A stretch of 64,000 nt of DNA, filler included, from Sanchytrium tribonematis (GCA_018985235.1; 5 parts of 5 records of this genome joined end to end with filler, not necessarily neighbours in it); one strand, 5' to 3'. Positions 2,739-49,888 are shown, numbered from the whole stretch's first letter. Numbers and translations are program-made. The notes: generated from the letters alone by a model not told the origin.

Positions 2739-3729
2739 ATGAAATGTAGAATTACAAAATTTCTGACCCTTGGAACAATGCAAACAACATTACCAATTAC
2801 AAAAGTATTCGCTAAGGCACCTGGCTTTCCACATTGGCCAGGGTTTATCACAGAAAATGCTCCCGACTATGTGTTCTCAGCGGATAAATCGAAGGAAGAT
2901 TATTTTTGTGTATTTTTTTTTGATTCATGGGATTATCAGTTATTTAAAAAAACAAGTAGCGACGTAGTTGAACATGTCAAAAATTCAAAGCTTACTATCA
3001 ACTGGGACGAAAATTATGACAAATTTTACAAAGCAAACAAATCTAGAAAGAAATATGTCGCTGCACTTGAACAAGGTCAAAATTGGACCAATGAGGAAAT
3101 TTATGCCAAACTAAGCAAAGTTGCTCAAAAAAGAGTAGCCCAAGATGAAAAAAGAAAAGAGGCGGAGGAAAAAAAGAAAATAGAAAAGAAACCTGCTGTG
3201 AAAAAGGCTGTAAAACGTAAGACCGAGATCGACTCAGCTTCGTCTTCTAAAAAGCCGAAGACCGCATCTCCTCTTGATAATCTAATCAAGACAAGAACAT
3301 ATTTGCATTCTAGACTTTTCACTCATCCTAATAATACAAATATTTCAATTGATAAAATTAAGGAGCAACTTATTATGCTTCGTGGATTGGATGTCAATTT
3401 TGATATATTAAAATCAAGCAAGATTGGCAAAATGATAAAAAGGATTTCAAAACTCACCGAGGAGAGTACGGCGAGAGATGGGCCGCCAAAAGCTCAAATT
3501 AAAGCCTTGACTGAAGGTGGTGTTATACAAGATTGCCAAAATCTCGTTCAGCATTGGACCAATATTTTAAGTACAATTGATTTACGTAGCACATCAAGGC
3601 GTGTCTGATGGTGAAGTCAAGGGAGATGCACAAATGAAAAATGCCGAAAGTTCGAAAATTGAGCGGTCCGACTCCACAGATGCACACGTAGATGCATTAG
3701 TGACTAATGTTAGATCTGTTGAAGTTTAG
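2739..3729 (+). CDS. PWWP + TFIIS-N(LW)-like chromatin protein; join(2739 or 2778..3570,3590..3729)
   Basis: VFAKAPGFPHWPG (PWWP); ILKSSKIGKMIKRI (TFIIS-N-like). A 19-nt intron gtacaattgatttacgtag (3571-3589) extends the frame to TAG at 3727-3729. Confidence 0.75.
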
Positions 3730-3805
3730 CATAGTAAATAGTATTATATCATAGTCTTGGAGCCGATTTATAAGATATTAAGGAGCGATTTTTCTAACAG
3801 TAATT

Positions 3806-3988
3806 ATGTTAAAAAGATTTTTAACCCAAGCTACGAAAGTCAGACTATCTACTAAGCCTTTGACAAAGGGCAACAAATTTGATGAAAGAGAAACCGCGGC
3901 AGAAAACAAATATGTAAGAGATCATGATAGAGAATTGCTAAAAAACTTGAAAAAAAATCAAGAGAAAGAAAAGAAGCCCAAGAAATAA
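3806..3988 (+). CDS. INH1: Mitochondrial F1Fo-ATPase inhibitor (IF1/IATP family)
   Basis: Basic presequence followed by KFDERETAAENKYVRDHDRELLKNLKK. Confidence 0.8.
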   Translation: MLKRFLTQATKVRLSTKPLTKGNKFDERETAAENKYVRDHDRELLKNLKKNQEKEKKPKK

Positions 3989-4091
3989 ATATTCACACTA
4001 GAAGAATCTTATGTCTGCTTGTCCACTTGATCAAATTGTCAAAGCATGTATTTTACAAAGTGGCGTATACATAGGCCGCGTATTTTTAGAA

Positions 4092-5457
4092 ATGGAACTT
4101 GTTCAAGCTATATTTTTGTTTATCTATATTGCGGTTATATTGGGATGTTCAATCTATATGCTTAAATTACGAAAGAAAACTTCATTCTTTCGTTACAGAT
4201 TTTGTTGGATCATCTTATTCCAGAACGTGATATTATCTCTTTCATTGATTGCCCTTTCTCGACCAGCAGTATTTGGAGAAGAAGCAAAGGATGGTGAGTT
4301 AGACCCAGTATTTTGTGAGTATATTTATTGGGTAAGTTATGGAATGATCCTAGTACCTGTAATATTACATCCTTTAAGATCTTGGACGTTTTACTTCAAT
4401 TATCAATCAAGCCGTGCAAAATTATTAGCCTCCACTGCAGATCCCTTACTTTTTCAACCTCTCAACGATATTCCATTCGTCAAACTAGACCTTCAATGGT
4501 TTCTGCTCAAGAAAAAATATGGACATTTAAAATATGCATCTACATTCTACGCTATATTTATCGCCATAACTTTTGGAATCTACATTGTTATTCGATATAC
4601 GACAGACGATTGGAGCGAATCGAGAGTCACTATAAACCCTAAATATTGTCCTATGATGACAGAAATTGATTTAGTGGCCGTTATTGGTGCAATCGGATTC
4701 ATTCTTAATTTTGTGATGACAACTCTGCTAAGTAAGTGCAGGGAAAACATTAAGTTGGAATTGGAAACGGGAATCGTAAATATCTCGATAATGGTCATGG
4801 TAGTTGTATACTTACTATCCCTATTTGAGAGTGTGAGTGAAGTTATCGACTGCGAGGATTTTCGTAGAGTGTGTCTTATTGTCGTAGCAGTATGCTACAT
4901 GGTTGGAAATACGCTTTTTCCACTAGTGTATTACTACTTTAAATTCAAAAAAGGACTTGCAGATGGCTCGGCCCTAAAAGAAAATTTGCAAAACGTGTTT
5001 AACAATCCTCAACTGAAGATGCAGTTTAAGGAATTTTTGGTTTCAGAATTCAGCGTGGAAAATTTTCTATTTTTGGAGGCCATTAAAAAGTTCAAGAAAA
5101 AATATGAGGGTGAAGTAGACTTGAACATAATTAGAAAAGGCGTTCAAGAGGTTTACTCTGAATTTTTTGCAAAAGTTTTAGTTGTTAACGTAGGATGCGC
5201 CTAATGGACTTAATGTGACTCATTTAATATCTAAACTTCTCAACATGAAGATGCGCGACTTGCAAAAAATGAATGCCCAGGATATGTTATCCCTTTACGA
5301 CGAAGCTTACGCTGCGATTGCATTTTTAGTTGAGAGTGATTCCCTTAGAAGATTTTTGGTAGGTAAAGATTTCTCCGCTCTTCCTGCCAGATCGGCAAAA
5401 TCCCTTAATAATATGACAAATTCCAAGAGTGTGATAAAATCATCAAATGTTGAATAA
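4092..5457 (+). CDS. 7TM receptor-like protein with C-terminal RGS domain (GprK/AtRGS1-like); join(4092..5174,5194..5457)
   Basis: About 7 hydrophobic segments, then RGS motif FKEFLVSEFSVENFLF. Removing 19-nt intron gttttagttgttaacgtag (5175-5193) gives FFAKDAPNGLNV and DSLRRF. An alternative upstream ATG lies at 4011. Confidence 0.8.
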
Positions 5458-5573
5458 ACAATTCGACATTTTTTGACATTTGAACCAAATTTTATTGCAA
5501 CACCCATGGGAAACAAGGTCAATCGCGGCTTTGGCCATTTCATTTCGCAAATTACAGCTGGCCAAAGTTTCAA

Positions 5574-7062
5574 ATGTGTAAAAGTTCAACTGATTTTATT
5601 AGAAATTATTTTCTTCAATATAGGCTATATAAAACCTTGAATGTATTTGAAAAAGAATTAGAGGACTTGTCACCAAGGCCAAAATTCTTGCAATTAGAAA
5701 CTATTTATGAACAATTAATGTATTTAGAAAATGAAAATATTAAAATACAAGAGGAAATGCGTCAGTGTGATTTCAGAATGAAAGAAAATGATCGAGTTTT
5801 TTTGGAGAACAAGAAAGAAAGAGATGTGTTCAAAATGTATCATGTTCAACTTACTCACGATAAACAGAAGAGTGAGAAGGAAGTCAAAAAATTAAAAGAC
5901 ACCATTGAAAATCTTGAGAATGAAATAACATCTTTGAAGAAAAAAGTCATTAAGTATGACCGAGAAAGACTAAATGCTTCAAGAGAACTTGAAAACTTAA
6001 AAGCTAAAGCAACAAGTGGGACTGAAATAAATGCACTTCCACCTCTCATCTCAGAAGGTGAAAAGGAAAAACCTGAAGTTGTTCCAATTGGAGTGGTACA
6101 GCAAACAAGTATTCCTAAAACACCCAAAAAATACTGGAGACAAATAAAAAGCATCAGAGCCCATATAAATGAAATCAATCAGCTTATAACAGATGGAGAA
6201 AATTACTTTTCGTTTTCAGACGATCAGACTTGGAAAAAATATGACATCAACTTAGAATTGCTACAAGAAGGTACAGGACATGAGGGCCATGTCACTTGTG
6301 GAACTATTTATATAACTGATCAGGTCGTTTTATTTAGCGCTGACGCATTAGGAATTATTAAAGTCTGGAATACAACTAACGCGGAATGTTTGCACACTTT
6401 TCGACCTACCAAAAATGAGATATGGACGATATCCTCTAAAAAAGAACATTTGATTTTTGGAAAAAATTATGGCTCCAGCCTTTGGGATATCAAAACTCTG
6501 GTGAATATAAAAGACTTTGACGGTCACACTGCAGCTATTACACATTTAGACTTTTTAGACAACAATAACTACTACTCTTGTAGTATTGACCGCCTACTTA
6601 TTTTGCAAGATATCCGTCAAAATTCGCCGTTGCAAACAATAGGGCATAAATTTCCCTTAATTAGTGGGCAACACTTTGAAAATATGTTGGTGGCTGCTGA
6701 CAATAGTGGAAATGTGTTCCGTTATGATCTTAGGTTTTTGAATGATTCAGTCGTAGGTAGCAGCCCCGCAAAATTATCTCAGTCAATTGATTTTGGAAAG
6801 CATGCCGTACACAAATGCCTGATTCAAAATGACCAAGAAAAAGACAAATTGGGAGTCTTATATGCGGCTTGTGACAACGGTTATGTGTACCCGTAAATTA
6901 TTCTCATAAAGGTATGATTTGCAGACTTGGAGAATGCTTCCAGCATTTAAACCGCACACTTCATCTTGCTGTGGTGTTTTAATGACTAAACAAGGAATTT
7001 TAACTGCAGGAGCCGATGGATATTTGACGTTAACTAGTAAACACCGTGATTTAAATTACTAG
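5574..7062 (+). CDS. SPAG16: Axonemal central-pair WD40 protein SPAG16/PF20-like; join(5574..6892,6912..7062)
   Basis: DFIRNYFLQYRLYKTLNVFEKE and KERDVFKMYH coiled coil resemble SPAG16; WD40 repeats follow. A 19-nt intron at 6893-6911 restores the last WD repeat (HTSSCCGV...LTAGADG). Confidence 0.7.
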
Positions 7063-7128
7063 CCAAATAAAATTTGTGTTTCAATTGAACTCTCTAAATT
7101 AAAGTGGCTTCTAAAACCAGTATCAATA

Positions 7129-10100: not shown

Positions 10101-12665
10101 TTTACAAAAACTATTAAAGGAAAATCCTGTTATTACTTTAAGAATATTTTCTTCTTCAGGTCCGGGAAGTTTTAAGACAATAACTTGCACCCCATTTGAA
10201 AAACCGACAGATGTAATTTTAAAATTTATCTCAAAATCTAGCGCCAAAGAAACAGATGCGGTGATCGTTGATCCCAGCAATTACATTTTAAAAAGTATTT
10301 TGAATGGTGAGTTTATCTTTGGAGATTATCCCTTAATAAGTTTTAGTTTCTTCAAAAATGAGATATTTAAGGGTAAAAAACTAATTGAACTTGTGATCAA
10401 GACTAGAGGTGTTCAAGAAACTTTGCCTTCGAACATAACAGAAGACCTGGTTGATGAGTCGAAGCCATATATTTCCGAACATAGAGCCCTTTCTATAGCT
10501 GGAAGAGAAATTTCAGATGTCAAAATTTTATCACAATGGGATATATTTAAAGATTTTAGGTTAAAACTTTTGAATATTGAAAATCTGATTATTAAAGACG
10601 CAAGTATAACGGATATACATATAAATTGCGGAATTTATTTTGGGGGTGAGGAATTATGCCCTTCTTTTGATACAAGCAGCATTAGTTTCAAAACAAATAC
10701 AAGCTTCAATATGTGGATAAATTTTGATATCTTCACTGCGAATATTCCAAAAAATGCGAGAATCTGTATTACTGTTTATGGGAAAACAAGTAAGAAGCAA
10801 GATCAGGATATTGTTGCTTTAGGTTGGGTAAACGTACTGCTTGTAGACTTTAGAAGTCATTTACTGCAAGGTAAGCAGTCATATAGACTGTGGCCACACG
10901 AAAAAGGAAATCCGATTGGAACAATATTTACAAGCAACGATAAAGATCATCCGCTATTGCATGTGAAGTTTCAAGATTATTCAGCTCCCGTCGTTTGTCC
11001 AGATTGCATACAGGAAAAAGACGAAAAGGCGGTTGAAGTTAGTGAAGATACTCGTTTTGCCATTGAACCCAAAGATATAAAAGAGCTTGACCGCATCTTA
11101 AATCTAGACCCTCTGTCAAGATTAACAGAGGAGGAGAAGTCTTTAGTCTGGAGGTATAGATATTGCATCATAGACCAGACCGAATCTTTACCAAAATTAA
11201 TTAGATCAACGCAGTGGAATGACCTTAATTCTGTATTAGAAATGAAAAGACTTTTGAAATTGTATTCTGACATTCCAATTGATGTGGCACTTGGCTTGTT
11301 AGATTCATATGTAAGCGATTCGGATATTAGAACATTTGCTGTTTTGAACTTAGAGAAGCAGCTTGGGGATTACCAATTGGTTGATTTAATGCTTCAATTG
11401 ACTCAAGCTTTAAAATATGAGCCCCGCTTGGATTCGGAGCTCGCGCGATTTTTGCTTAAGAGAGCTGTTTTAAACAAAAGCATTGGACATAGATTTTTTT
11501 GGTACTTGAAAGCTGATATCCATAGGCCTGATGTCTCCACTTTATTTGCGATTCTAATTGAATCATATTTACTTGCTTCTCCAGATCATATGGAAGAGCT
11601 TATAAGACAGAACATTTTGCTGAAACAGATGGACGATACTGCCTTAGCAGTGAAAAAAGCTCTTACCGCCGAACGTGGAAGAGTCCTGAAAAATATGCTA
11701 GGAGGATTAAAGCTCGACTCCGGTTTTGCGTTGCCATTAAATCCAAAATTGTCTTGTTCAGGTATCAATCTTAAAAAATGCAAAGTCATGGATTCTAAAA
11801 AATTGCCTCTATGGATCGTTTTTGACAATTTTGAAAGATATGGAGAAGAAATACCAATCATATATAAAAGCGGGGATGACCTACGACAAGACATGTTAAC
11901 CCTGCAGATGCTAAGGCTGATGGAAAAGATATGGCATAGTGAAGGATTGGATATGAGACTCGCACCATACGGTTGCCTCTCTACAGGTCCCGATATGGGG
12001 TTGATCGAAGTGGTAAAAAATTCTTCCACTGTCAGCGGCATTCAATTGAGTCTAGGTGGTAGTACTGCTGCATTTAAAGAAGACGTGCTTGACCAATGGC
12101 TAAGGACTCAAAATCCTGAAGAAGCAGACTACGCTAAGGCTGTGGAAATGTTTACATTGAGTTGTGCTGGATACTGCGTGGCAACATACTGTCTTGGAAT
12201 CGGAGACAGACACAATGACAATATCATGTTGTCAAAAGATGGTAGACTGTTTCACATTGATTTTGGACATTTTCTTGGAAACATTAAGCGAAAATTTGGA
12301 ATAAAGCGCGAGAGAGCTCCATTTGTCCTAACTCCTGATTTTGTTCTGATCATTGGGAAGAAAGACAGCCCGAATTTTCAGAGATTTTTGGATTTGTGTA
12401 TTCGTGCGTATATCATAATAAGGCGGCAAGCCAACATGTTTATTAATTTATTTGCAATGGTATTTTTTGTCTTATTTAGATGATCTCCACGGGCATTCCG
12501 GAGTTGAAATCTATTGAGGATATAGATTATTTAAAGGAAGCTTTCAGTCTCGGTTTGAATGAGGAAGAGGCAGCCGAAAGCTTCAAAAATCTAATATTCG
12601 AGAGCTTGAGGCTGGGATGGTCAACGCAACTAAATTGGTATGTCCACAACCTGGCTCACAAATAA
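7129..12665 (+). CDS. Class I-type phosphoinositide 3-kinase catalytic subunit with long N-terminal extension; join(7129..12459,12480..12665)
   Basis: ABD/RBD-like, C2, helical and kinase domains; KSGDDLRQDMLTLQ, GIGDRHNDNIM, FHIDFGHFLG, KRKFGIKRERAPF. A 20-nt intron at 12460-12479 gives FAMMISTGIPEL...NWYVHNL. Confidence 0.9.
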
Positions 12666-12671
12666 AATCGT

Positions 12672-12934
12672 TTATTCTTCAACACTGGTAACTGAATGAT
12701 TTAAATCGCCATAAATCTCGTAAAGTGTAACAGCTTTAGTTTTACCTTTGAGAGTTTCTTTACCGTGATACCGCGACCGAAATTTGTCCTTGATTTTTAA
12801 ATAGGTAGATTCCGCGACCAGCACCTAAATTAGATATAAATTACTTGATTGTCAATCGCCATTCCACAAATTCTGGAAGAAACATTCACGGCATCGCCTA
12901 TTGAGGTAACCTCAACTCGCTCTGCGCCACCAAG
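12672..12934 (-). CDS. Class III nucleotide (probably adenylyl) cyclase, C-terminal part only; join(complement 12845..12934, 12672..12824); truncated by contig end
   Basis: Not in the ORF track. Manual translation: LGGAERVEVTSIGDAVNVSSRICGMAIDNQ|VLVAESTYLKIKDKFRSRYHGKETLKGKTKAVTLYEIYG. 20-nt intron gtaatttatatctaatttag at 12825-12844. Confidence 0.85.
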
Positions 12935-15008: not shown

Positions 15009-16336
15009 TTAAATCAATGGTAAATTTTGAGCCCTAGCGTCAATCTGCCGAATTTGTTGCCTTCTAATACGCAACTGTTCAAATTCCTTTTGCACATCAG
15101 AGGTCAGATCCTTCGGTGACAAAACTATGAGTGGTAATTTGCTAGTCTTATTTTCCAATTCAGGAAGCTGTTTCTAAATGAGAAAAAAATGCCCAAGCTC
15201 CAATGCCTCTTTTATTTTTAACTTCATTTACTGAAGTGTCTTCAAAACCCTACGAAAGTATGGAAGTTACATTTTGTTTGTTGGCTTCTTGCTTTTCTGC
15301 CAGTTTTTTGTCTTTCTTATCTTTGATTTGACCTTTTAAATACTCAGCATTAACTCTGTTTTTCTCAAGCTAAATGAACAAAAAATACCTTTTCTTCTCT
15401 ACCAGGATCGTCATTGGTATGATCGGAAGCTCTTCTACTAGGTTTTTCTGATGGACTCATCGTCATATTTCCAGAGCTAATTCTTGAACTAGCAGTACCA
15501 GGTTTTGATACTATAGTAGAAGAATTTTTTAAAGGCGGTAACTGGGCAGATGATAGCCGACTATTGTCCTCTGCTTGGTAATCATTGAACATTTCGGTAG
15601 AATTTTGGTGAGAAACTGATTTGGATCTTACACCAAGTTCTTTAAATTCTAAATCTGTGATCATTTCGTTCTGGAAATCAACAGAACCCTTTTTTGATTC
15701 GGGTTTTTCGATATTTGAAGTGTTTTGTCTTCTTCCAGAAGGATAGTTGCTCTGCTTACCATATCCATCGTATATTCTATCTCTTTCTTCTCCGGCGATG
15801 ATGTCAAACTTTTCAGTTCTTTCGTAAACGTGGTCCTTAACGGCTTTTCTACCATTATTTGTCTTAAATTCAGGGCCATTTCCGAAATTAGTTCCACTTT
15901 CTTGAGCAAGTTTTTTTTCTTGCTCTTTTTCGAGCATTTCTTGTCGTTTTTTGGCTTCTGCGTGCTTTTCCTTAAAATCCTGAAGCTCTTTCTTTCTTAG
16001 TTCGTTTTGGATACGGAGCTTTTCGAGCTGTTCTGGTGTGTGTTCATGAGCACCATTTGTAATTCGAGCATCTTTTTTTAGTGCTCGTCTATTTCCTTCA
16101 TCGACAGGTAGTTCTTTTAAAGCAGATTTTTTAGGAGTTCCGTCCAAATTGTAGTCTTGAAATCCGCCGTTAACAATTTTCTTGAAATCGGTCTTTTGCT
16201 CCTCTTGTTCATGACCAAGACTTGTAGCTCGTTTCGTCGGTCTATTTTGTATCTCTTTGGCTCTTCTTTCGTTTTCTTCTTTCTGTAATTTATTTGGATC
16301 GTTTGGTGTCATGTCATGAGCTAAAAAATTTGACAT
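15009..16336 (-). CDS. Hypothetical charged/low-complexity protein with three 3' micro-introns (15370-15388, 15250-15270, 15174-15192)
   Basis: ORF from ATG 16336. Removing 19-nt GT-AG, 21-nt GT-AG and 19-nt GC-AG introns gives a continuous frame to TAA at 15009, 10 nt from the UBC9 stop. The middle intron is less certain. Confidence 0.6.
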
Positions 16337-16456
16337 TTTCGGTGGCTTGTGCAAATGCCATTCGTTTTAAAACAGCCAAAAAAGTCTATCAACCCCTGAT
16401 ATATTGAAAATGAATAAACGTGTGGCTATTTACGCCAAAGTTAAAACTGAACTGAA

Positions 16457-19076: not shown

Positions 19077-21138
19077 TTAATTACTTCTGTCGAAAAATTC
19101 GTGAAACTTTGCAAGATTTCTATTTAAAGCTCGGAGCAGATAAGGATTCAATTGCTGTTGAAAATAGGAACCTAATTTGTGTTTCCCAATTCTTACTATT
19201 AGTTTGGTAGCGCACACCTTAACTTGTGGATCAAAATGAAAGAGTCCTATAGCAATTGGAGAGAGTCCTCCTTGATCTATAGGTAAATAACTTAATAACT
19301 ACATTAAACTTAAATACTTCTTCAATTTGATTTGGCTGTTTAATAATTTTTTCAAAAGCTACAAATGTGTCTCTGACTTCATCGATGGATAGATTGCTGC
19401 ATTGTCTCAATTTGACAATCTCTGTCCCAAGATCTATGCCTTTACATGGCCTTTCTATGGTATAAAGTTTGAAATCCTCAACCAAGTTTTTGTAAACTTC
19501 GTTGCTTCTAAATGCAAGAATTCTAGCCTTGTTTTGCTTTAGTTCTTCCCTATCGATTGAGTCAAAAAAGGTATAACCTGTTGGGGGCTCAAGATTTAAA
19601 TTAAACTGGTCCACTTCGTCTATTAAGTCTTGCTGTTGTAAAGCTACCTGGCAATCTTGCTCTTCTCTTTCATAAGCAATAAGCAAATGAACAAATCTTT
19701 CGATATATTCTTGAAGCTTCATTCTCACGAAATGCTCTCCACATCTATTACTGATCATGTCGACCACTTCCTCGACCAATTCAAAATCTGTGAGATATTT
19801 GTCCAGCTTGGTTTTCTGGTTTTCTTTGTCTTTATCACGACTTTTTGTCCTTCTATGCATTTCCTCTGTGCTCAGGGTTTCCAGCATATCTTTCTTTATA
19901 ATCGATTTAAACCACTTTTCTTTCTTTTCGTCATCTTTGTGAGCTACACAATCTGGGCTTATGGTGACTTCACCAGTTTTCACATTAACAAGAACATCCC
20001 ACCATTTGGTTTTTGTTTCATATGCAGGATTAGTTACTCCTGCAATGTATCCTGGGCAACCAAGTACTGTATCCAGATGAAAAATACTACAATAGGGAAA
20101 GCACCGTTTTGAAATGCCTCTTAAAATTGAACCATTACCACTGGCAATTGAAACTAATGCCAAAACATGTTGACAAACCTCGCTTGCACTAATTGCATGC
20201 CCAAGAAATAATACTCTTTTTCCAGTGAGTACGGCATTAATCAACACTATCAAATTTGGGGTTTCAACACCACTGCTGTGCAGTTCCTTGATCATTGGGC
20301 CAGTTGGGAATTCTGTACCAGCTTTATTATACTTTTGAATGAAATCTATTATACTAAACTCACCTATTCTTTCAATTTTTTTGGTCGAAATAATGGGTAT
20401 TTGCAATTTCATACTTACTTTGTAAGCGCTGATCGTAACTTGTTGAGTTTTGTTTTCAGGAAAAACACTAGCCCGTCTTCTAATAAGCCCTACATTTTCT
20501 TGAGGTTGAATTTGGTCGAAATTTGAAACTGTCTGTCTTTTCTTGGCAGATTCGCTTTGGCTTCTAGGTCTTGGTTTCTTCTTAATTTCACTTTCGCTTT
20601 TCGTTCGGTCTCTAAATTCATCTGTACTGGCTTCCAAAGTTGCCATTTTTGGTTTAAATACTTCAGTGCGATTGAATTGAGTAGTCTCGGTTTGTTCGAT
20701 AATTTTTCTGCGATATTCAGGAATGGGTGAAATTTTTGAAATGTCACTGTTGTTTATCGCTTCAAATACAATTTTAAGCATATCGGGATCATTTGATTTG
20801 AAATATTGATCAAGCGTTAAAACAAGCAAGGGACGAAAGACGTGCAAAAAAGGTTTTGTGCTACAAATTGCTAAGGCTTTCATTCTTGCACCTCGCTGGG
20901 CAGTATCATCTTTTTTTGTCATAACCAAATTCAATGCATACATCTGCTGATTAGATTTCAAAAAGTGATGAAGAAAAAACCAAGTCCAATCCGTATCCCT
21001 TGAATGACCTCCTTCAGGCAACATTAATTCGGCTAGAACCTGTTCGTCAACACCCGTTGGAGTAGGATACTGCTGCCGCAAGGTGCTTCCCTTTAGAATG
21101 TCAAACTCGCTTAATAAAACATAGTCCACGATAGTCAT
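19077..21138 (-). CDS. DENN-family polarity protein Afi1/MesA-like; join(complement 19318..21138, 19077..19298)
   Basis: VDYVLLSEFDILKGS, LAELMLPEGGH, RGARMKALAI, IAGVTNP. A 19-nt intron at 19299-19317 yields LLSYLPIDQGGLSPIAIGLFH. Confidence 0.85.
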
Positions 21139-21902: not shown

Positions 21903-23796
21903 ATGGCGGAACGATCTGAAAATCATGAATTGGCATCAATTTCTAAAAATGAAGATCAAAAGGAAAAGCTTCTAAATGAGGAAGAAATTACACTCACTTG
22001 GCATGATATTAAATATACGATTACCAAAAAAAAGAAAGATACTACATTATTGGCTGGAATTAGTGGAGAGGTCAAAGCAGGCGAGATGGTAGCGATACTT
22101 GGAAGCTCTGGGGCTGGAAAATCGACTTTATTAAATGTTTTGAGTGGCCGCGTGAATACTGGTAAAATTGAAGGCCAGGTTTTAGTCAATGGTCAGCCCA
22201 GAGATCCTAAAATTTGGACAAAGCAATGTAATGTTGTGGAGCAAGATGACATGTTTTATGCTACGACTACAGTGAAAGACGCAATTGCATTCAGTGGAAA
22301 GCTAAGGCTACCGAAACAAAGTCCGGAGAGCTTAAACAAAACTGTCGACACCACTATAGAAGAACTAGGACTTATTCATGTAAAAAATACGAGGATTGGG
22401 GACGCAATCAGAAGAGGTATCAGTGGTGGAGAAAGGAAACGTTGCGCAATTGGAGTCGAATTGGTTACCAATCCTAAACTATTGTTTTTGGACGAGCCGA
22501 CTACTGGACTTGATAGTTTTATTGCATACAATATTATACAGACACTGAAAAATCTAGCCGCTAGAGAAAATCGATCCATCCTGATGACAATCCATCAGCC
22601 AAGAGAAACAATTGTTGCCCTGTTTGACAAAATTATGCTACTGAGCAAAGGACGCTGTATTTTTTTCGGTAATATACAAGAGGCCTTAGACTATTTCTCT
22701 AAAAACGGGTTTCCTTGCCCAGAAAATACGAACCCTGCAAATTTCTTTATCGATCTGATCACAATAGATTATCGAACTGAAGAAAAACGAGAGAAAAGTG
22801 AAAACAGAATCAATAAGTTGATTGAAAATTGGAAGCAGCACGATTTTAAAGCAAAATATCCGAAAATACAGGAGTACCATGTGGCAGGTGGCCACCTTAG
22901 TTTTCAATACAATTCTACTTGGCTATATGAATTTGGAATACTATTTAAAAGAAGTCTTAAAGAAACGACACAAAATCCGGCCATTGTTGGCATCACCATT
23001 GTGCAGTCTTTGTTCCAACTTTTGCTTCTTGGTGTGGTGTTTAACAACTTAGACAAGTCCCAAAAAGGAATTCAAAATCGTATTGGTTTTGTATTTTTTC
23101 TGTCTCTCAATTTACTGTTCACTAATGTCATGCCAACCGTAAATACCTTTCCCCTATTGAGAAGCATTATTAGCAGGGAGAGACGATCTGGAATGTACAG
23201 AGCAAGTTCCGCGTTTCTTGCGAGGCTATTAAGTGTGTTTCCATTAATTACATTCCAATGGGCATTTTTTGTAATTCCAATTTATTGGATCTTGGGGATG
23301 GATCCCGCTGCTGATAAATATGTCATTTATTTTGTAGCTGCATACCTACACCAAATTTTTGCATGTTGCCTTGGTTTGATGATTGGATCAGCAGTTCCGG
23401 TAATTTTGATTTATATAGACTCCAGAATTGGGTCAGGTTATCGCCCCTATAGTAGCTTTGTTGATGATAATATTTGGAGGTTTGGTTGTGAATTTAAAAT
23501 CCCTCTCGCCAGCCATTTCTTGGCTACAATACCTCAGCCCAATTAGCAACACAGTGAAAATTATGAGTCAAAATGAATTCAAAGGCCAGGTGTATAATTG
23601 TGTCTCAAAAGCTCAAACTCCTAATGGGCCACAGTGCGTAGATTTAACTGGTGAGGATATTTTATCAAATCAAGCACTTGATACACCAGTTTTGTTAGTT
23701 TGCTTTATAATTAACATAAGCTGCGTTGTATTCATGGCAATATGTGGAGTGTGTTGCTTTAATCGAACAACAAGGCCAAAATTAAAGTTAAAGTAA
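21903..23796 (+). CDS. ABCG half-transporter (White/ABCG2-like); join(21903..23399,23419..23796)
   Basis: GSSGAGKST, ISGGERKR, LDEPTTGLD, TIHQP and TMD. A 19-nt intron at 23400-23418 joins the two ORFs (AVP|TPELGQ). Confidence 0.93.
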
Positions 23797-23805: not shown

Positions 23806-23968
23806 TCAAACTCTGGTGCTTGAATTTTTTTTATTATATTTACTTTGGATGTTTTCTAGCTCAAGTATTATCTGACTTTGTTGATTTTGTGTAATACTGT
23901 ATAAACAAAAAATACAGAAAGTCATTGTAAGGTAAAATTTCACTAATGGATTTGCATCTTGATTCCAT
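23806..23968 (-). CDS. Putative 47-aa micro-protein; join(complement 23916..23968, 23806..23896)
   Basis: ATG at 23968, consensus 19-nt intron gtattttttgtttatacag (23897-23915), stop 9 nt from the convergent ABCG stop. No homology recognised. Confidence 0.4.
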
Positions 23969-33684: not shown

Positions 33685-34456
33685 ATGACTGCAGGCAAAA
33701 ATAAGAGAATTTCCAAAGGAAAGAAGGGTGGAAAGAAGAAGATCATAGATCCATTTTCACGTAAAGAATGGTATAATGTCCAAGCACCAGCATTATTTAA
33801 GCAAAACACATTGGGATGGACTCTTGTTAATAGATCTCAAGGTATGAGAAATTGTGTCGATGATTTAAAGGGAAGAGTATTTGAGTCATCTCTTGGAGAT
33901 TTGAACAAAGATGAAGAACAAGCCTTTAGAAAGATGAGTTTTGTTGTCGAAGAAGTTGTCAATAATGAATGTTTGACTGGATTCCATGGCATGAGCATCA
34001 CATCCGACAAACTTAAATCTATGATTAAAAAGTGGCAGTCTCTGGTTGAAGTTTGCATTGATGTCAAAACCACTGATGGATATCTTCTAAGAGTTTTTGT
34101 TATTGGATTTACCAAGAGACGTCAAAGACAAGTCAAGAAAACTGCATATGCACAATCCGCTCAGATTAGGGAAATCAGAAAGAGATCTTTTGAAGTTATT
34201 CAAAAAGAAGCAAACTGTGAGTTGAAAGAATTAATTCAAAAATTGTAAATCATATTTATTTAGCTCTGCTGAAACTATCGGAAGACAAATTACTAAAGCT
34301 ACTAATGGAGTATATCCATTGCAGAATGTGTATGTTAGAAAAGTGAAAGTTTTGAAAACACCAAAAACTGATCTTAGCACATTTTTGGAATTGCACGAGA
34401 CTGGAAAGAAAGTCGATGGCGGATTCAAGGAGCCAGAAATTTTAGAAGAAGTTTAA
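33685..34456 (+). CDS. RPS1: 40S ribosomal protein eS1 (S1/S3a); join(33685..34244,34264..34456)
   Basis: [25 protein letters not shown] 19-nt intron at 34245-34263 gives [36 protein letters not shown]. Confidence 0.97.
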
Positions 34457-34994: not shown

Positions 34995-35640
34995 TTAGTG
35001 ACACTTTTGCGCGTGCTTGTTCCATAATACATGTATTGGATTTCTCGCGGACGTAATGGGTATCCACTGATTGCATTTATGACACATTCCGCAAGTAGCT
35101 TGGCTTAAGTGGTCAATTTTAAGTTCAATTGGTTTCTGATATGGTCGACTAAATTATTTTAAATTACCCAGTGGAAGACGAAATGCCATGTATTATATTT
35201 AAATGATACCAGTATTGACTTATTTTTATATTAAACCACGATGGTCGCTTGCATAAACGACACAAGCCTTCTTTGGTTTTCCCTTTACCCCGCACATAAA
35301 TTGGGGTATATAAATCTTCTTTTGACTTGATAAATTGGGACAGTCCCTGAAGCTCTATAATTGTCCTGTGATATGACGCAGTCTCAAGAGCAATTTTATC
35401 AATATCTTCTATGGGTTGCGAATCGATCGGACTCCTCTCTTGTAGTGGATCATAATCTTTATCCGTTTTCAGTTTTCCGTAAAATTTGTGTGCGGAAGTT
35501 TTATCGTTAAAACGACTACTTTTATTTTCATGCGTTATTTCCTTCGCCGCCATCTTTGATACAAGTATTAAGGATTTAAAAAGTCTGCTTGTTTGTTCTG
35601 ATAAGTGTGCTTGTTCGTCTTGTATATTTAATGCTATCAT
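34995..35640 (-). CDS. Rua1 C-terminal (DUF4451-like) Cys/His domain protein; join(complement 35168..35640, 34995..35148)
   Basis: DLYTPIYVRG, EGLCRLC, YWYHLNIIHGISS. A 19-nt intron at 35149-35167 adds GRPYQKP...CGMCHKCNQWI...WNKHAQKCH. Confidence 0.8.
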
Positions 35641-35732: not shown

Positions 35733-38700
35733 TTATTGTTCACTTAGTTTGACATAACTAGATGGTGCGAATTTCTTTTTGAGTTTCTTGAGTATTAAAA
35801 GCGGGACACAACTGCTTAGTGTCAAGACGGCGGTTTTCCATATAAAAGTACCACCCGAAATATATCTTAAATCTATATAAAACCAAATTACTGAAATCAG
35901 GAAGAACAACCATTGCGATTAAATAAACAATCACACTGGCGACTTCCGCGTAAACCATAAATCTGTGCCAGGTATTGATTTCTATGGCGACCATGATCAA
36001 CTCATTAAATATTAATGCAGTAAATGTTATTGCTACGATGTGTATAAATTCTGACTCGAATAAGTATAGTGCAAACAACATTATGATTCCGCCTTGGTAT
36101 ATTGAAATGACAGTCCAAATTAAAAATGTTTTTGTATTAAGGGCCCTTCCTTTAACTAAATCTCTATACAGCTCTGGATATTCCATTGCTAAATTGGGAG
36201 TGACATCTTGATCTAAAACAAGTGAAAACACAGGCCACATAGTAAAAATGGTGGAATAACCAACTAATAGAGCACCCTGGTATAGTGCAATAGGCGCAAA
36301 GAAAAATAAAGAGCTAAAAACTGCTTGGAGAAATGATATAATAAGACCTCTGTGTATCACAAATTGACTCAATTTTGCTGTTCTTTTGTAACAGCATCTT
36401 CCGTGCCAGAGCAATAACCTAGCTATGTGACTGAATTGAGTTATCGAAAAATCTGCAGCAAGAGATGCTTGCTTGCCTTCTTTTCCAACGATTCCAATTC
36501 CGCAATGACCTGTTTGAATCATTGAAACGTCATTCCCACCGTCACCAATAGCAGCAACTCTCTTTCCGGTAAAATCCATAATTAGCTTCGTAACATCTGC
36601 TTTTTGCGTTGGGGAACATCTACAGCATACTACAGCAGGAAGTTCCACAGCTCTTTTTATAAAATCATCTTTTAGATGATCTAAGCACGTTTGCAAGCTC
36701 AATCCATCTACGACAAGACAGTAATTGGAATTCGAGTCAATTTTTCTCAATATATCTAGACAATCGTTGGGAGATGTGCATTTCGCGATTGGCAACAATT
36801 CTTGATCTCTACTACACAATCTAGTCGACATTGCTATTGTTTGAGCAGTTTCTATTTTGTCACCAGTCAACATCCAAATCTTGATACCGGCTTCTCTTAA
36901 TGTTTCCAGGGTATGCTTTACATTATCTTGCAATTTATCTTCAACACCAGTCAAACCAAGTAAAGTCATTTGCTTCGAAATAAAATCAAATACCTTATTT
37001 GTTTGCTGCACTCTATCTGGACTGAGCTGTGCAGCCAGATATCTTTCCTGAAATGATTTATACAATTTTGTATCCAGATCCCTTTTTGCGACAGCCAAAA
37101 CTCGCAAACCTTCTCTTGCCATATTAGTAGTTTCTTCATCAAGCCAGTCATTGGCTAATACCAATTTTGCTACTACAGTATCTGCCCCTTTTACATATAA
37201 AGTTATGTTATCCATAGCATCTTGAATGACAATACCCATTCTTTTTGTCTCACTTGTGAAAGGAAAAGTTTGTAAAATTTTGTAAACGTGAATTGTGTTA
37301 TGATATTTGATATGAATAGAGCCCATATCTCGGTGAATGAGAGAATAGCCTATACGCTTTGTAAATTCCACGATAGCAATTTCGTCTGGACTACTTGCTT
37401 GATAACTTATCGTCTTGTCAAACTCAGAATAACTTGGTGTCACATTATGACATACTGCCAACGCAATCACCAACTCTAAAGCTTTTGGCTTGATATTTTC
37501 CATCAATTCGTCAAAAGTTTCGACAGTATACGCCACGTATCCCAAATGTAGTTTCTTAAGCTCCATTTCGTTTTTTGTTAAAGTCCCAGTCTTGTCGCTT
37601 AAAAGGTATTCTATTCTCCCAAGCTCTTCAGGAAGATGGGAGGTTCTGACAACTGTATCGTTAATCTGGTCGTCTTTTTGAATGGCATATGAATAATAAG
37701 TCTTTGCCATATCCAAATTGACTCTTAAACTAATTGGAATAATGCTTGAAAATAAAATCATAAACCTAGTTATAAGTATATACCATTCGCTTTTGTTTGT
37801 ACTAAATAAATACATAATCATCGATAGAGCAAAAGTGAAAACAAATAAAACTTTTGACAGATAGTTTAACTCTAAATCTACAATTCCTACCTTATTTTGA
37901 GGCATTTTTGTATTAAGCATCGACTTTGTCTCTTTACCAGTATAGAGAACTAGGCCATACACAACGGTGTTACTAGCAACAATTGTATTTGCCCATAAAG
38001 CATTGTCGATGCTCAAAGGTATGGCTTCATAGGGACTTTTTGAGCCATTTAAATGCTTCAATTCAATCATACTATGATCCGATGTAGCGGATTGTGGACT
38101 TAGAGAAGGAGAATGTGGTTTGGCGTCCAAAGAAAATTTTTCCACCATCATTGTGCCAAAGAAGCTATATAAATCTTTGTGTGGTTCTTCGTAATTCACT
38201 TTGATATATTTACATTGGTGAAGTGGTATATTTTGAGTGTGTGGAACAGGAACTTTTAACTTCCAATCTGTTTCGCCGTCAAGTTGGTCAGTTCGTAAAA
38301 ACATGCTTTCATTCTGGTCGACTTCTCCAATTGCTTCTTTCTTGGATCCATCAACGCATTTAACCAGTAAAAGGTCCGATGGTACTCTAGAATTTTTTGT
38401 GAGCATGATTACGTCACCCACTCTCAGTTGGGATGCTGATTTAATTGTAGTGTATTCGTTTTGTGCTTCTAGATTATCTACAGAACTATCAATGACCTTG
38501 TAAAGTTCTTTGTTTAATTCCCCATCTCTTCGCTTTCTTTTCAAGTCATCTAGTGCCTCTTTCGACATGGTTATCATCAAAACAAAACAGAGAGGTCCAA
38601 AGTAAGTAATTAAATATCCAATACGAAGTTGAGGAATCAGCTGGCTCATTGCGACTAATAAGAAATACATATTAAAAAACATCTTAAACTGTTCAAATAA

Positions 38701-40401: not shown

Positions 40402-40514
40402 TTCAAAATTTTGTTTATTAAATACCTTTTTTCCTTCAAATAAGCGGCAAAAAGGGCGATTGGAGCCTCCTTGTTTCTGCTTTGTTAATTACATGGAATT
40501 TTAGGTCACTCCAA

Positions 40515-42374: not shown

Positions 42375-43431
42375 ATGGACGAGTTAATATTACCATTACC
42401 TGATCTGAAATTGGTGCAGTATGCTTTCAACAAACAGGTCGATTTGGCTGTCGAAGAAATTAAAAAATACAAGATGAAGCCATACTATGAGTTTTTGCAA
42501 AAGTCTCAAAAGCTTCCGAAATTGCAAGGGCTAGACGCTGATCCATTGGAGCATCCTGCATTAGAAGAGGATGATGATTATGCAAAAATGCAGCAAACTG
42601 TCAAATCTGCTGTTTATTTAGCTCAGCAAGGATCCTTGGATGCAATTCCGATTTTTGAACAGGTCATTTCTCAAAGTGGAAATGCAGGTCTCAAAATAGA
42701 AGCCTTGCTGGCTTGTGTTCGTTTGCACTGGCTATATAATAAAGATCCGGCACCTTTGTTTGCCAAATTGGATACTTTGGTTGAGAATGCAGATTGGGAC
42801 AGAAGAAACAAATATAAGGTATACAAAGCTGTTTATTTGCTAACCAAAAGACAATTTACTGAAAGTTCAGTACTGTTAGCAGAGACATTGAGTACTTTCA
42901 CAAGTTATGAACTGTGTACATTTCAGGAATATACTCAAATAGCTGTGATTGTCTGCATTTTAACTCATTCCCGCCCAGATTTGAAAAAATTGAATATTCA
43001 AGTTGATAGTCCTTTATTTGTCGAATACCAACAATCTCTTTATCTATGTAATTATGGGGACTTTTTTCTCAAGCTGTCTGATATTGAAGAATACATGGAA
43101 AAACACTGGTTCTTGAGTCTACATTTAAAATACTACATTAAGGAAATGAAATTGAAAGCCTATCAGCAAGTTCTTACTAGTTACCAAAGTATTCATATCC
43201 ACCACTTGGCTAGATTATTTGGCGTTTCCAATGATTATATTGAATCGTAATCAGTATTTATTTAGAGAATTATTTAAGGCAATTTCAAGCGGCAGAATTA
43301 ATGCTCAAATTGACAAGGTTAATGGAATGGTCAAAATGGCACCTAAAAAGGGTCTTTATACAGAAATCATGAAAGTGGGTGATCAACTCATGAACAAAAT
43401 TCAAGCCTTGAGTAGAGTAATTTACACTTGA
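42375..43431 (+). CDS. RPN7: 26S proteasome regulatory subunit Rpn7; join(42375..43246,43266..43431)
   Basis: ADWDRRNKYKVY, STFTSYEL, PCI domain. A 19-nt intron at 43247-43265 gives YIESELFKAISSGRINAQIDKVNG. Confidence 0.93.
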
Positions 43432-43450
43432 GAAATAAATTTAAAACAAA

Positions 43451-47539: not shown

Positions 47540-47882
47540 GCTTAAGCGGAGTTGCTTTTGAAAAGAATTTATGGAGAAATTGAAAGAGGCTAATTTATAA
47601 AAATCAATTCAATTAAATGCTAAATTTAGTATTCGTATATTTACAAAGTTTGATATTATTTGATTAAGCAATCGTTTCACGGCATTGACTAAGAGTATGC
47701 TAATGATTTATTGAATTCATTTTGCCAAAGGAAAAGCTAAAATTGGTTCAATATGATTTAGCTGACCTATAAATTCTCAAGATTTACTATTGATTGTTGG
47801 AATACAAAGTTTTGCGTTGTTGCTCAAATCAGATTTTACGTCATGTTTTTTAATCTATAGAAATGTCATTCTCAATCACTAT

Positions 47883-48116
47883 TTAAAATAGCATATGATG
47901 ATCTATTTTTTTACCGGTTTTCTTCTCGTATTCTTTAGCGTCCTCTGCAAAAGCATCCCATACACAGTAAACACATCCTGACATACAGCAATTATTTGGA
48001 ATTTCCGGCGGTTTGACAAATTCCACAGCTTTAAATGAAGCAATTTGCATCGGCTCTTTGCCTTGTAGCCCGCGTGTAGGTCTCAGTAAAAGATATTTGT
48101 AGTAACCTCGTAACAT
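47883..48116 (-). CDS. Oxidoreductase-like N-terminal domain protein (small, probably mitochondrial)
   Basis: PPEIPNNCCMSGCVYCVWD. Confidence 0.8.
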   Translation of the reverse strand: MLRGYYKYLLLRPTRGLQGKEPMQIASFKAVEFVKPPEIPNNCCMSGCVYCVWDAFAEDAKEYEKKTGKKIDHHMLF

Positions 48117-48159
48117 AAAAGAAATAATTTTTAATGGAAACCAAGGGAGACGCGATTTT

Positions 48160-48537
48160 ATGCGTAATTTATTTTCCAAGTTAAGTTATCCGGTTTCTAT
48201 AATAAGTAATCATAATAGAGGAATCACAATTAATAGCTTGCATTCGTTTTCCTTGAACCCTAATTTAATTTGCTTTAATATTTTCCATCGAAGTACAATT
48301 TTACCATTAGAGGCTTTCAAAATATACTGTTTACAGCGGCATCATGTGAAAATTGCGAAGCATTATGCAAATTCTAGATCTTACATGGACGTACCTAAAG
48401 ATACTATTTTGATGAATTGTGAAAAAGTGAAAGAGGTTCATGTAGCTGATCATCTTTTAGTTATTGCAAAACCTGAAATACTTCGGGTGCCAATAGATTT
48501 CAATGCACTACAGTATGTCCACTCTAATTACCAATAA
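48160..48537 (+). CDS. Flavin reductase-like FMN-binding domain protein
   Basis: SKLSYPVSII, RGITINSLHSFSLNP, VADHLLVIA. Confidence 0.75.
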   Translation: MRNLFSKLSYPVSIISNHNRGITINSLHSFSLNPNLICFNIFHRSTILPLEAFKIYCLQRHHVKIAKHYANSRSYMDVPKDTILMNCEKVKEVHVADHLLVIAKPEILRVPIDFNALQYVHSNYQ

Positions 48538-48543
48538 ATAGAT

Positions 48544-49888
48544 TTATTCCCATGCGTTTTTCATATAAACTTGGACTGCATTTAATGCTTTATATTTAAC
48601 TTCGTCATTCTCATGAGACATTAATTCCATTATTTTTTGTTTGGCACCACTTAGCTGAACATACCTTAATAAATCAAAATTACTTTTTGGAATCAGGACA
48701 GTATTTGAGTACCTGTCCAATATCATGACAACAAATTGCCAACACTTCGGGCTTTGAAGATGCACTTAGCAGCCTAGCTAGTGACTTTATCAGAGCGCCA
48801 TCCATTTCCATAAATTTGCTTGCATTAAATTTCCAAAATATATCAGACGTGTGGACTGGCGACCATTCCAGATTTCCGCTTGTAATTTCAGCAGCATAAT
48901 GATCAAAAGTAGATAAATTTAGGACGTGCTCCTGAATAGCAGCATCCAACTGTTTAATATCCTCTTTCATATCGTCGTCATTGAATTTTAAACTCTCAAA
49001 TAGAGTGTGAGCATGAAATCCAACAAGCGCATTAAGAGTGTCCGTCTTGTCCCCTTTCCACAAATTGTAAATCAGCGAAATAGAAATTCTGGCAACCTTT
49101 TCCTTGGTTGTTCTCCTTAATATTCTTAATAATGACCCGCATGTTCTATATTTGTTGATAATTTCACACATTTTTGGTTCGAAAGATACCAGCCATAAAA
49201 TATAAGAGAGCTGATATTGCTTTTGAATGCTAGATGCATCCCAACTTTCCATTTCTGATATTGTTTTAAGCTTTTTAGCAATCACCTCTGTATATTTCTC
49301 TTGTTGCATATATTGCTGCCTAATCTCCTTGACTGCCAAAATAGCTTGAAGACCCTCCAAGGCAAACTCGCTGGACTTTTGAGAGTTCATTTCTGCAATG
49401 TATGGATATAAAATATCGAAAATAATTCTAACATCGTGACTTCTATATTTTTTCCACACACTTCTTTGCTGAGAAAAGCAAACAATTTCTGCAATTATCT
49501 TCAAACAAATCCATGGAGTTATTTGATCACCTTTCCATTTATCCATTTTACTTAACAAAACAGGTATTGGGTCTTCAGAGCTTGCCAAACAAACTGACAG
49601 ACGGTATGGATCTTGCACAAGTTCCTCAAATAAATATAGAATAGAATTAATAGTGTCAGTCTTTTGTAATCTGTTTAGTAATGATATCCAAATATTATAA
49701 TATTTTAACACTTTTTCTGGCTCTGGCTTATCTTGGCTTAAAATGGTGCTGTAAGTTTTTATTGCATCAAATTCTTCATTTGTAATCAGCTGTGCAGAAA
49801 AGTAGCCCTCCCAAGGAATATTGGTTTGCTTTCCCGGCAAATCGATTAAAGTTGAAGGCGGAAGAGTAGTAGGAAGTACAGTTTGCAT
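48544..49888 (-). CDS. VMA13: V-ATPase subunit H; join(complement 48684..49888, 48544..48664)
   Basis: KEKVARI, LSTFDHYAAEITSGNLEWSPVH, CHDIGQ. A 19-nt intron at 48665-48683 gives GAKQKIMELMSHENDEVKYKALNAVQ. Confidence 0.93.

Follow-up and report, generated by a model that had tools for sequence, protein, structure and literature searches.

The spliceosomal introns closest to those considered here have been described in a few distant lineages. In the heterotrich ciliate Stentor coeruleus they measure 15-16 nt (PMC9505925). In the nucleomorph of Bigelowiella natans, introns of 18-21 nt are densely packed, with about 900 distributed over 283 genes, and the branch adenosine is not discernible (PMC6009652). 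The parasite Mikrocytos mackini has introns of 16-17 nt, and the mikrocytid spliceosome comprises 17-19 proteins, with only the U2, U4 and U6 snRNAs found (PMC10245619). Short introns are also present in microsporidia and myxobolids (median 22 bp; PMC13644364). Prp18 and Slu7 are dispensable when the distance from the branch to the 3' splice site is short, and Prp18 has been described as imposing a minimum distance (PMC10711555). Intron-poor genomes as a rule show a 5' positional bias (PMC532390).

In this study, we analyzed a single 64-kb stretch of DNA from Sanchytrium tribonematis (hereafter the window), about 44.6 kb of it coding, which contains 16 candidate introns, or about 0.36 per kb. 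The species is a sanchytrid fungus that parasitises algae. The window consists of five contigs, with joining spacers at 12935, 25954, 38944 and 51905; 13 of its 32 counted genes carry an interruption, and contig 5, which holds decayed transposons, yielded no intron call. An earlier note on this DNA had described ultra-short spliceosomal introns in a fungus-like genome, a description supported here for a fungus; its 16 coordinates and lengths are exact. We are confident that the segments are, in all likelihood, U2-type introns in the 3' parts of conserved genes, processed by a near-complete major spliceosome whose 3' cut probably falls five bases past the branch adenosine.

Evidence for very short introns

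Thirteen of the 16 intervals are 19 nt long, two are 20 nt and one is 21 nt; 15 have GT..AG ends and one GC..AG, so that the acceptor AG is present in 16/16 (Table 1). As the note had claimed, excision restores the reading frame: every cut lets translation run on for another 19-125 codons, until the following intron or the stop codon is reached. Fifteen of the introns shift the frame, and the sole one with a length divisible by three (21 nt) contains a stop. An ORF-rescue scan also yields many alternative cuts of 4-300 nt, and frame rescue alone thus does not set intron length; the Neo1 cut is absent from its list because the 46-codon exon ends too near the read-through stop for the filter.

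For four genes, every possible excision was scored against a homolog HMM, and the proposed cut ranked first in 4/4. Pfam positions are continuous across the cut in RPS1, ABCG, Rpn7 and Vma13, and resume after a 7-position gap in the Rua1-like gene. Homology fixes seven of the 16 introns to the base (RPS1, Neo1, ABCG, Afi1, PI3K, Rpn7 and Vma13), and domain continuity supports one more (Rua1-like). The other eight, with no or weak homolog support (PWWP, RGS, WD40, cyclase-like, coiled coil and three within a single gene), are based on frame rescue, motif and codon usage, by which the proposed frame was the top of six in 12/12 exons tested. The label of the cyclase-like gene is tentative, taken from a motif, and neither of its exons matched in Pfam or PDB; an Atlas search with the three-intron gene gave low scores only. 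Length-blind pairing of donors and acceptors produced a modest peak at 19 nt (21 against a mean of 10.1 and a next-highest count of 19, P=0.002), which drops to background (8) after removal of the 16. The claim that no longer intron was needed is borne out wherever a gene model can be built, which leaves 17910-18970 unaccounted for.

Table 1 Proposed introns of the window and one further candidate
Feature	Position	Strand	Phase, host gene and location	Basis
19-nt GT-AG intron	3571..3589	+	phase 1, PWWP/TFIIS-N gene, 140 nt before stop	frame, motif, codon usage only
19-nt intron	5175..5193	+	phase 0, TM-RGS gene, 264 nt before stop	weak RGS similarity in exon 2, E=0.3
19-nt intron, AAG acceptor	6893..6911	+	phase 2, WD40 gene, 151 nt before stop	exon 2 propeller match, E=0.04
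20-nt intron	12460..12479	+	phase 0, class I-like PI3K, 186 nt before stop	joins PI3K alpha and gamma without a gap; on PI3K-gamma (7mez), residue 1033 is the last of exon 1 and 1034 the first of exon 2
20-nt intron	12825..12844	-	phase 0, cyclase-like gene truncated by contig end, ~150 nt before stop	frame, codon usage
19-nt GC-AG intron	15174..15192	-	third intron of three-intron gene	frame, codon usage
21-nt intron containing in-frame stop	15250..15270	-	three-intron gene	without branch A at -6; weakest call
19-nt intron	15370..15388	-	first intron of three-intron gene	frame, codon usage
19-nt intron	19299..19317	-	phase 0, Afi1/SPA gene, 222 nt before stop	best of 257 cuts (131.1 bits; 123.6 for a different 19-nt cut; 56.6 unspliced); relative P0265 breaks at same codon
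19-nt intron	23400..23418	+	phase 0, ABCG transporter, 378 nt before stop	best of 325 cuts (394.4 bits; runner-up 381.9; unspliced 236.6); intron-less P0250/P0251 align gap-free
19-nt intron	24377..24395	-	phase 0, coiled-coil gene, 363 nt before stop	frame, codon usage
19-nt intron	34245..34263	+	phase 2, RPS1/eS1, 193 nt before stop	best of 197 cuts (396.3 bits; runner-up 370.9; unspliced 309.0); A. gromovi ORF stops at same codon
19-nt intron	35149..35167	-	phase 2, Rua1-like gene, 154 nt before stop	both flanking exons match Pfam Rua1_C
19-nt intron	35873..35891	-	phase 1, Neo1/ATP9 flippase, 140 nt before stop	best of 259 cuts (472.2 bits; runner-up 447.5; unspliced 424.2); three relatives break at same codon
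19-nt intron	43247..43265	+	phase 2, Rpn7, 166 nt before stop	exons match the PCI domain over 6-57 and 60-82, gap-free
19-nt intron, AAG acceptor	48665..48683	-	phase 2, V-ATPase subunit H (Vma13), 121 nt before stop	V-ATPase_H_C 1-78 then 82-117, gap-free
New candidate 19-nt intron	23897..23915	-	~100 nt 3' of coiled-coil gene stop; 3' UTR or 47-codon ORF	PWM 14.5 bits

Outside the window, the read-through tail of the S. tribonematis paralog P006122 (P0253) decodes to a 19-nt intron that scores 137.5, whereas the next length reaches 56 and none of 200 shuffles exceeds 72.2. The Neo1 tail of the sister species A. gromovi fits 20 nt (or 25 and over) and the tail of ENA P0123 fits 22 nt (or 27 and over), while decoding fixes no intron length for the tails of P0001, P0002, P0126, P0127 and P0254. 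A narrow range under about 22 nt describes 16/16 introns of the window, at 19-21 nt, and the one 19-nt case outside it. Judged from the DNA itself, the segments are likely U2-type introns removed by splicing. U12-type signals (RTATCCTT donor, CCTTAAC branch) occur in 0/16, and U12-type introns, readthrough and recoding were all rejected, as was an in-frame 21-nt candidate at 46297-46317, which scores low and lacks the T at -8.

Branch-like motif, spliceosome and intron length

The consensus of the segments is GTAWT...T-N-A-Y-N-W-AG, with G at +5 in 0/16. The combination T(-8)/A(-6)/Y(-5) is found in 15/16 (P ~1e-17) and in 3.6-6.8% of other 19-21-nt G[TC]..AG strings (about 7% background). The A at -6 is kept in the 19-nt and 20-nt classes alike, the only exception being the 21-nt intron, and this T-N-A-Y adenosine is a putative branch point, the consensus being of the type named yTnAy-like. 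Neither the branch-like motif nor the 3'-end confinement described below figured in the earlier note. A PWM of the introns recovers 13/16 in leave-one-out; it found no further 19/20-nt site on the sense strand inside annotated genes, and one new site in intergenic DNA, downstream of a stop (Table 1). Antisense strands gave 7 matches at 19-20 nt where about 2.6 were expected, and the motif alone is therefore not diagnostic. The high-scoring ones at 21972-21991, 22923-22941 and 26218-26236 lie opposite known genes and were taken as chance.

Rfam and ARAGORN searches of the 64-kb window returned no match, and no snRNA was found in it. The A. gromovi annotation lists U1-70K, U1A/U2B'', Luc7, Prp40, both U2AF subunits and BBP, together with Prp8, Brr2, SF3B1 and SF3B3 (PMC8371127 supplement 4), and contains at least 63 occurrences of the spliceosome GO id. 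Slu7, Prp18 and U1C were not found in the searchable part of this annotation, which covers about half of the proteins and was queried by id. Judged by A. gromovi, the loss of the U1 snRNP and most factors, as in reduced-spliceosome systems, is not seen here, and the proposal of a miniaturised spliceosome made in the note finds no support, since U1 proteins, U2AF and BBP are kept. Its description as length-measuring holds in part: the spacing from branch A to AG is constant, whereas total length varies (19 nt, 20 nt and, by inference from one relative, 22 nt).

In the mechanism that we propose, splicing would follow intron definition: U1/U6 would read the short GTAWT donor and U2, on the far side of a loop of 13-14 nt, would bulge the A at -6. 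We lean slightly towards an AG taken at a fixed distance, five bases past branch A, a distance that lies below the Prp18-imposed yeast minimum and fits the failure to find Prp18 and Slu7 in the sister species. By the same slight preference, the narrow total length would result from deletion bias pressing the loop between the 5' site and the branch onto a steric floor, and not from a ruler counting 19; a narrow size range also follows from such a bias.

Three other readings bear on the nature and length of the segments. That they are assembly errors, pseudogenes or programmed frameshifts is suggested by the short contigs and by a genuine frameshift in the window near 26500, in a helicase/RdRP, which is not an intron. 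However, the same end dinucleotides and internal motif recur in 15-16 cases, the breaks in RPS1, Neo1 and Afi1 fall at identical codons in A. gromovi and other relatives, and a frameshift cannot remove six surplus codons; in addition, run X1 contigs are indel-free over three introns, on contig 3 only and with X1 possibly the window's own source. We give this reading almost no weight. The introns could also be real but mostly retained, with inefficient or regulatory splicing, as in microsporidia, whose tiny introns have a median splicing of about 25% as cited in PMC13644364, and mikrocytid introns are spliced at 37-63% (PMC10245619). Such retention seems unlikely to us: the introns cut essential domains (RPS1, the Rpn7 PCI, Vma13 and the PI3K kinase end), 15/16 shift the frame and the only 3n intron holds a stop, and in a chlorarachniophyte nucleomorph splicing removes most introns from 80-100% of transcripts. 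The third reading, a dedicated ruler by which a miniaturised spliceosome counts about 19 nt from the donor, would explain why 13/16 measure exactly 19 nt. It would also suit ABCG, where the homolog test prefers the 19-nt cut over one from a GT 6 nt upstream that uses the same acceptor, and PI3K, joined gap-free at 20 nt despite a GC 6 nt upstream. These bypassed donors are also weaker in sequence, though, the A at -6 retained in 20-nt introns places the anchor in the 3' part, relatives fit 20 and 22 nt, and A. gromovi retains U1 proteins, U2AF and BBP; we consider the ruler rather unlikely, if somewhat less so than widespread retention.

Position of the introns within genes

All 16 introns lie 121-378 nt upstream of a stop codon (P ~1e-7, with 375/400-nt cut-offs picked post hoc). 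In the threshold-free form, the relative position is 0.58-0.97 for 15/15 introns in 13 complete genes (KS P=3e-6), and ORFs of 900-1800 codons in the window are unbroken. The 5' enrichment expected of intron-poor genomes is absent from the window, where the bias is reversed. Two ENA ABCG homologs break farther upstream, the one in P0254 being placed by homology some 650 nt ahead of the stop, and the 400-nt limit is thus not absolute in relatives.

It is possible, though we would not expect it, that introns would persist or arise only near 3' ends, recognition being helped by coupling to nearby 3'-end processing. A historical origin is a possibility of similar standing: internally primed reverse transcription may have erased upstream introns, or gains may have been tolerated only near 3' ends. 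For ascomycetes, both a lower rate of loss at 3' ends and internal priming have been proposed (PMC532390). Turnover is evident, the ABCG intron being missing in two close relatives and paralogs breaking at other codons, and the RPS1 site is without an intron in 19/19 intron-bearing genomic loci of other eukaryotes. A site that outgroups do not share speaks against introns simply persisting from an ancestor, and internal priming ought to spare some 5' introns as well, of which none was found in the window. The 21-nt "insertion" of locus L045 at the RPS1 site is a protein insertion without GT-AG and not a shared intron. A small-sample or detection effect, with introns actually throughout genes, would draw on there being only 13 complete genes, on the post hoc cut-offs and on detection limits, as introns at the extreme 5' end and 3n introns that contain no stop escape notice more easily. 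However, a mid-gene 19-nt intron would break long ORFs equally visibly, the KS result needs no threshold, the matches to the Afi1 and UQ_con profiles begin at profile position 1, no more than about 10 residues from the ORF start, and the RPS1 first exon aligned along its entire length; this explanation appears improbable. The most far-reaching reading is that 19-20-nt introns are possible only in a gene's last few hundred bases, where a Prp18/Slu7-less spliceosome coupled to the poly(A) machinery would cut five bases past branch A. It would give the shortest fungal introns, the first 3'-confined landscape and a branch geometry convergent with Stentor, and we regard it as doubtful.

Annotation and comparison with known tiny-intron systems

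The proteins of the sanchytrid genome paper were called by TransDecoder on genomic contigs. The mis-annotation foreseen in the note is borne out, as all 12 of the interrupted ORFs compared with EukProt (12/12) are present there as exact entries in unspliced form. At interrupted genes, public sanchytrid proteomes would be truncated or end in false C-termini, with consequences for what is inferred about domains, gene loss and phylogenomics in the phylum. Among the best 80 of 487 confirmed JGI metagenome loci retrieved with an RPS1 query, identity was at most 66% and none was sanchytrid DNA. No published account of these introns was found in the literature searched; if spliced, the segments would be shorter than any fungal intron found in print. 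A fungal lineage would then join the small number of eukaryotes whose spliceosomal introns approach the minimum size. Confinement to 3' ends inverts the rule for intron-poor genomes and offers a test case for reverse-transcription loss versus coupling to 3'-end processing.

The introns of the window resemble those of Stentor (PMC9505925) in their GT-AG ends, AU-richness, GTAATT-type donor and low density, and in the position of the branch A (putative in the window) at the sixth base from the 3' end, with a 5-nt tail, a geometry that points to a shared physical floor. In both, Slu7 and Prp18 were not detected while U1 and U2AF are kept, the sanchytrid side being the A. gromovi annotation. The window's introns differ in being 19-20 nt long, with a longer 5' loop, in a clearer T-N-A-Y, in their fungal host and in a 3' instead of a 5' positional bias. 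With the B. natans nucleomorph they share size range and canonical ends, but they are sparse and have a fixed branch-like A (PMC6009652). The likeness to M. mackini lies in parasitism, few introns, very narrow lengths and conserved sequence, whereas A. gromovi keeps U1 proteins and the window's introns also occur in transporters and enzymes (PMC10245619). Microsporidia and myxobolids likewise combine reduced parasite genomes with sub-30-nt U2-type introns. Compared with these and other opisthokont short introns, the set in the window is shorter and narrower, and its putative branch A is fixed, whereas that of myxobolids shifts with length (PMC13644364).

Evidence for introns of 19 to 21 nt

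The 16 short segments that interrupt genes in the window are very probably U2-type introns. The positions and lengths claimed for them in an earlier note hold (13 of 19 nt, two of 20 nt and one of 21 nt); 15 have GT..AG ends and one GC..AG. In four genes, all G[TC]..AG cuts of 4-199 nt near the break were scored against a homolog HMM, and the proposed cut ranked first in each: of 197 excisions in RPS1, 259 in Neo1, 325 in ABCG and 257 in Afi1, where the second-best cut is likewise 19 nt. Pfam coordinates are gapless across the introns of RPS1, ABCG, Rpn7 and Vma13 and continue only loosely across that of Rua1, and the PI3K exons meet between residues 1033 and 1034 of PI3K-gamma and between 1004 and 1005 of PI3K-alpha. 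Two close ENA relatives lack the ABCG intron, and both align gaplessly to the spliced product. Homolog evidence of these kinds covers eight of the 16 introns; by codon score, the proposed frame was top of six in all 12 exons tested. The 21-nt intron is the least secure of the set.

The introns share a GTAWT-like donor, with G at +5 in none, and a 3' end with T at -8 and a pyrimidine at -5 in 16/16, A at -6 in 15/16 (unshifted in the 20-nt introns) and a terminal TAG (14) or AAG (2). Elsewhere in the window, this 3'-end motif occurs in 3.6% of 1654 other 19-21-nt G[TC]..AG strings, and in 6.8% of 265 AT-rich, WAG-ending background strings (P ~1e-17). Two results count against the introns: length-blind pairing gave only a modest peak at 19 nt (21 versus a mean of 10.1; next highest 19), which drops to background when the 16 are taken out, and on antisense strands the intron PWM had 7 matches at 19-20 nt versus ~2.6 expected.

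Position within genes and surrounding loci

The 13 complete genes contain 15 introns, every one of them 121-378 nt upstream of the stop, at a relative position of 0.58-0.97. The 16th intron, in a gene cut by a contig end, is ~150 nt upstream of its own stop. Intron density is ~0.36 per kb. The PWM, which recovered 13/16 introns in leave-one-out, found no further 19/20-nt site on the sense strand of annotated genes. Its one intergenic site, a strong 19-nt candidate, lies ~100 nt past a stop codon and would be either a 3' UTR intron or part of a 47-codon ORF ending just before the convergent ABCG stop.

Positions within 400 nt of a stop make up only 28.6% of the coding sequence (44.6 kb); for the 3' concentration of the introns, P is ~9e-8 (13 genes; cut-off set post hoc), with KS P=3e-6. 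A sampling effect seems an improbable explanation of this confinement and ranks below the two others. Biased loss or gain is a possible cause; the RPS1 site is empty in 19/19 intron-bearing genomic loci from other eukaryotes and the intron sites of ABCG homologs differ, which together point to intron turnover (in the ENA homolog P0254, the break, placed by homology, is ~650 nt from the stop). Level with it stands coupling with 3'-end processing, which we tentatively, and only slightly, favour.

Coordinates of introns, genes and other loci in the window
Feature	Positions	Strand	Remarks
RPS1 intron	34245-34263	+	19 nt
Neo1 intron	35873-35891	-	19 nt
ABCG intron	23400-23418	+	19 nt
Afi1 intron	19299-19317	-	19 nt
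PI3K intron	12460-12479	+	20 nt
Rpn7 intron	43247-43265	+	19 nt
Vma13 intron	48665-48683	-	19 nt
Rua1 intron	35149-35167	-	19 nt
21-nt intron	15250-15270	-
16th intron	12825-12844	-	20 nt
Intergenic intron-like site	23897-23915	-	19 nt
Multi-repeat voltage-gated channel	3-2732
Class I-like PI3K	7063-12665		Ras-binding domain
PhoD phosphatase	16451-17908		intron-less
Short frames	17910-18970	-	no Pfam match
Helicase/RdRP locus	26056-31886	+
CAP59-family mannosyltransferase	32412-33629		intron-less
Radial spoke protein 3 family gene	40422-41219
Single-repeat ion channel	43445-44665		presumably CatSper-like
Glycosyltransferase-99	50711-51904		weak match; intron-less
Decayed-transposon contig	52005-64000
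Tc1/mariner ORF	58306-59478		intact-looking

The five spacer-joined contigs, ~12.9 kb each, have 34.5% GC; base composition and contig size agree with the published S. tribonematis figures of 34.64% GC and an N50 of 11.9 kb (PMC8371127). Contigs 1-4 bear introns; contig 5 carries a broken transposase (IS4/piggyBac-like DDE split over two frames) and retroelement-like fragments. At the helicase/RdRP locus, the C-terminal domain of a helicase is in one frame and an ORF with RdRP and nucleotidyltransferase in another. The frame break near 26498 was rejected as an intron. A contig from a DNA sequencing run, ~97% identical at this locus, has 43 extra bases there; by hand arithmetic, these would put helicase and RdRP in one frame. 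Such a helicase-RdRP fusion probably differs between the two sequences through allelic, paralogous or assembly variation. The short frames (several of 45-100 codons, none cleanly joined by tiny introns) may be small genes or a decayed gene. Radial spoke, channel and PI3K genes occur here in a lineage whose flagellum is described as non-motile.

Splicing machinery and proposed mechanism

Splicing factors were sought in the A. gromovi sheet and the beginning of the S. tribonematis sheet in supplement 4 of the genome paper (PMC8371127). Among the factors that the earlier note proposed to inventory, rows exist for U1-70K, U2AF (U2AF65, U2AF35) and SF3B1/SF3B3, with rows also for U1A/U2B'', Luc7, Prp40, BBP, Prp8 and Brr2; Snu114 is uncertain, the first row bearing its id being labelled EFG_IV. 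Searches by family id, giving counts only, were positive for Prp5, Prp16, Prp17, Prp22, Dbr1, Upf1, Mago, Y14, Isy1, SF3A1 and Prp31. In these sheets, U1C, Slu7, Prp18, SRSF1 and two minor factors had zero id matches, weak absences given that annotation reaches only about half of the proteins. Slu7 and Prp18 are also marked as undetected in the Stentor factor table (PMC9505925), and in yeast both are dispensable when the branch-to-3'SS distance is short (PMC10711555). A. gromovi BBP/SF1 is split into two adjacent ORFs on one contig (rows 1135-1136), a pattern that an unspliced intron would yield; such pairs could serve genome-wide intron counts.

We propose that these introns would be recognised by intron definition, across the intron, with the acceptor set at five bases past the branch A. 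The 5' loop would have been worn down to a steric floor, an erosion also proposed for mikrocytids (PMC10245619).

Relatives, annotation and known systems

Relatives were examined via public unspliced ORFs, which run into their introns. These end 0-7 codons from the window's site in 4/4 close relatives for RPS1 (A. gromovi among them), 3/3 for Neo1 and 1/1 for Afi1. RPS1 exon 1 shares a 90% cluster with A. gromovi P005481 (EukProt EP00835), and for Neo1 the identity in the searched region is 87% with A. gromovi P006050 and ~60% with other fungi. A named S. tribonematis protein is a paralog of the window ABCG. On these matches the window comes from a sanchytrid other than A. gromovi, probably S. 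tribonematis. The tail of P0253 (S. tribonematis P006122) leads into ABCG exon 2 only with 19 nt removed (decoding score 137.5 versus 56.0 for the next-best of 42 lengths; at most 72.2 in 200 shuffles). A motif-compatibility test fitted completely in 3/8 tails, at 20 nt in A. gromovi Neo1, 22 nt in the relative P0123 and 19 nt in P0253, longer lengths also being allowed in each. Environmental assemblies contain several more sanchytrid-like genomes (proteins P0001, P0123, P0126, P0127, P0250-P0254, P0265), 72-90% identical in RPS1, Neo1 and Afi1 with identical intron breaks; they offer material for a lineage-wide intron survey.

The expectation that such genes would be mis-annotated was confirmed: 12/12 interrupted ORFs looked up are letter-identical to unspliced EukProt entries, as is one intron-less control ORF. 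For the genome paper, ORFs were called from the contigs with TransDecoder; words starting with 'splic' are absent from its main text, where 'intron' appears a single time, in the title of a reference (PMC8371127). The consulted portions of PMC8476143, PMC9730499 and PMC10459994 hold no sanchytrid intron data. Searches on sanchytrid introns and splicing, on short fungal and microsporidian introns and on 3' intron bias, in literature with few subscription papers covered, turned up neither these introns nor a 3'-confined distribution.

The 16 introns, judged real, would join the tiny-intron systems described elsewhere: 15-16 nt in heterotrichs (Stentor: PMC9505925), 16-17 nt in mikrocytids (PMC10245619), 18-21 nt in nucleomorphs (PMC6009652), a median of 22 in myxobolids (PMC13644364) and 23 in Trichomonas (PMC12316389). 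By the yeast convention, the branch-to-3'SS distance from the putative branch A is 5, whereas the natural minimum in yeast is 10 nt, with 7 nt emerging without Prp18 (PMC10711555). A 5' bias is the described pattern of intron-poor genomes (PMC532390) and is likewise found in Stentor (PMC9505925), whereas the sanchytrid introns of the window lie near 3' ends.
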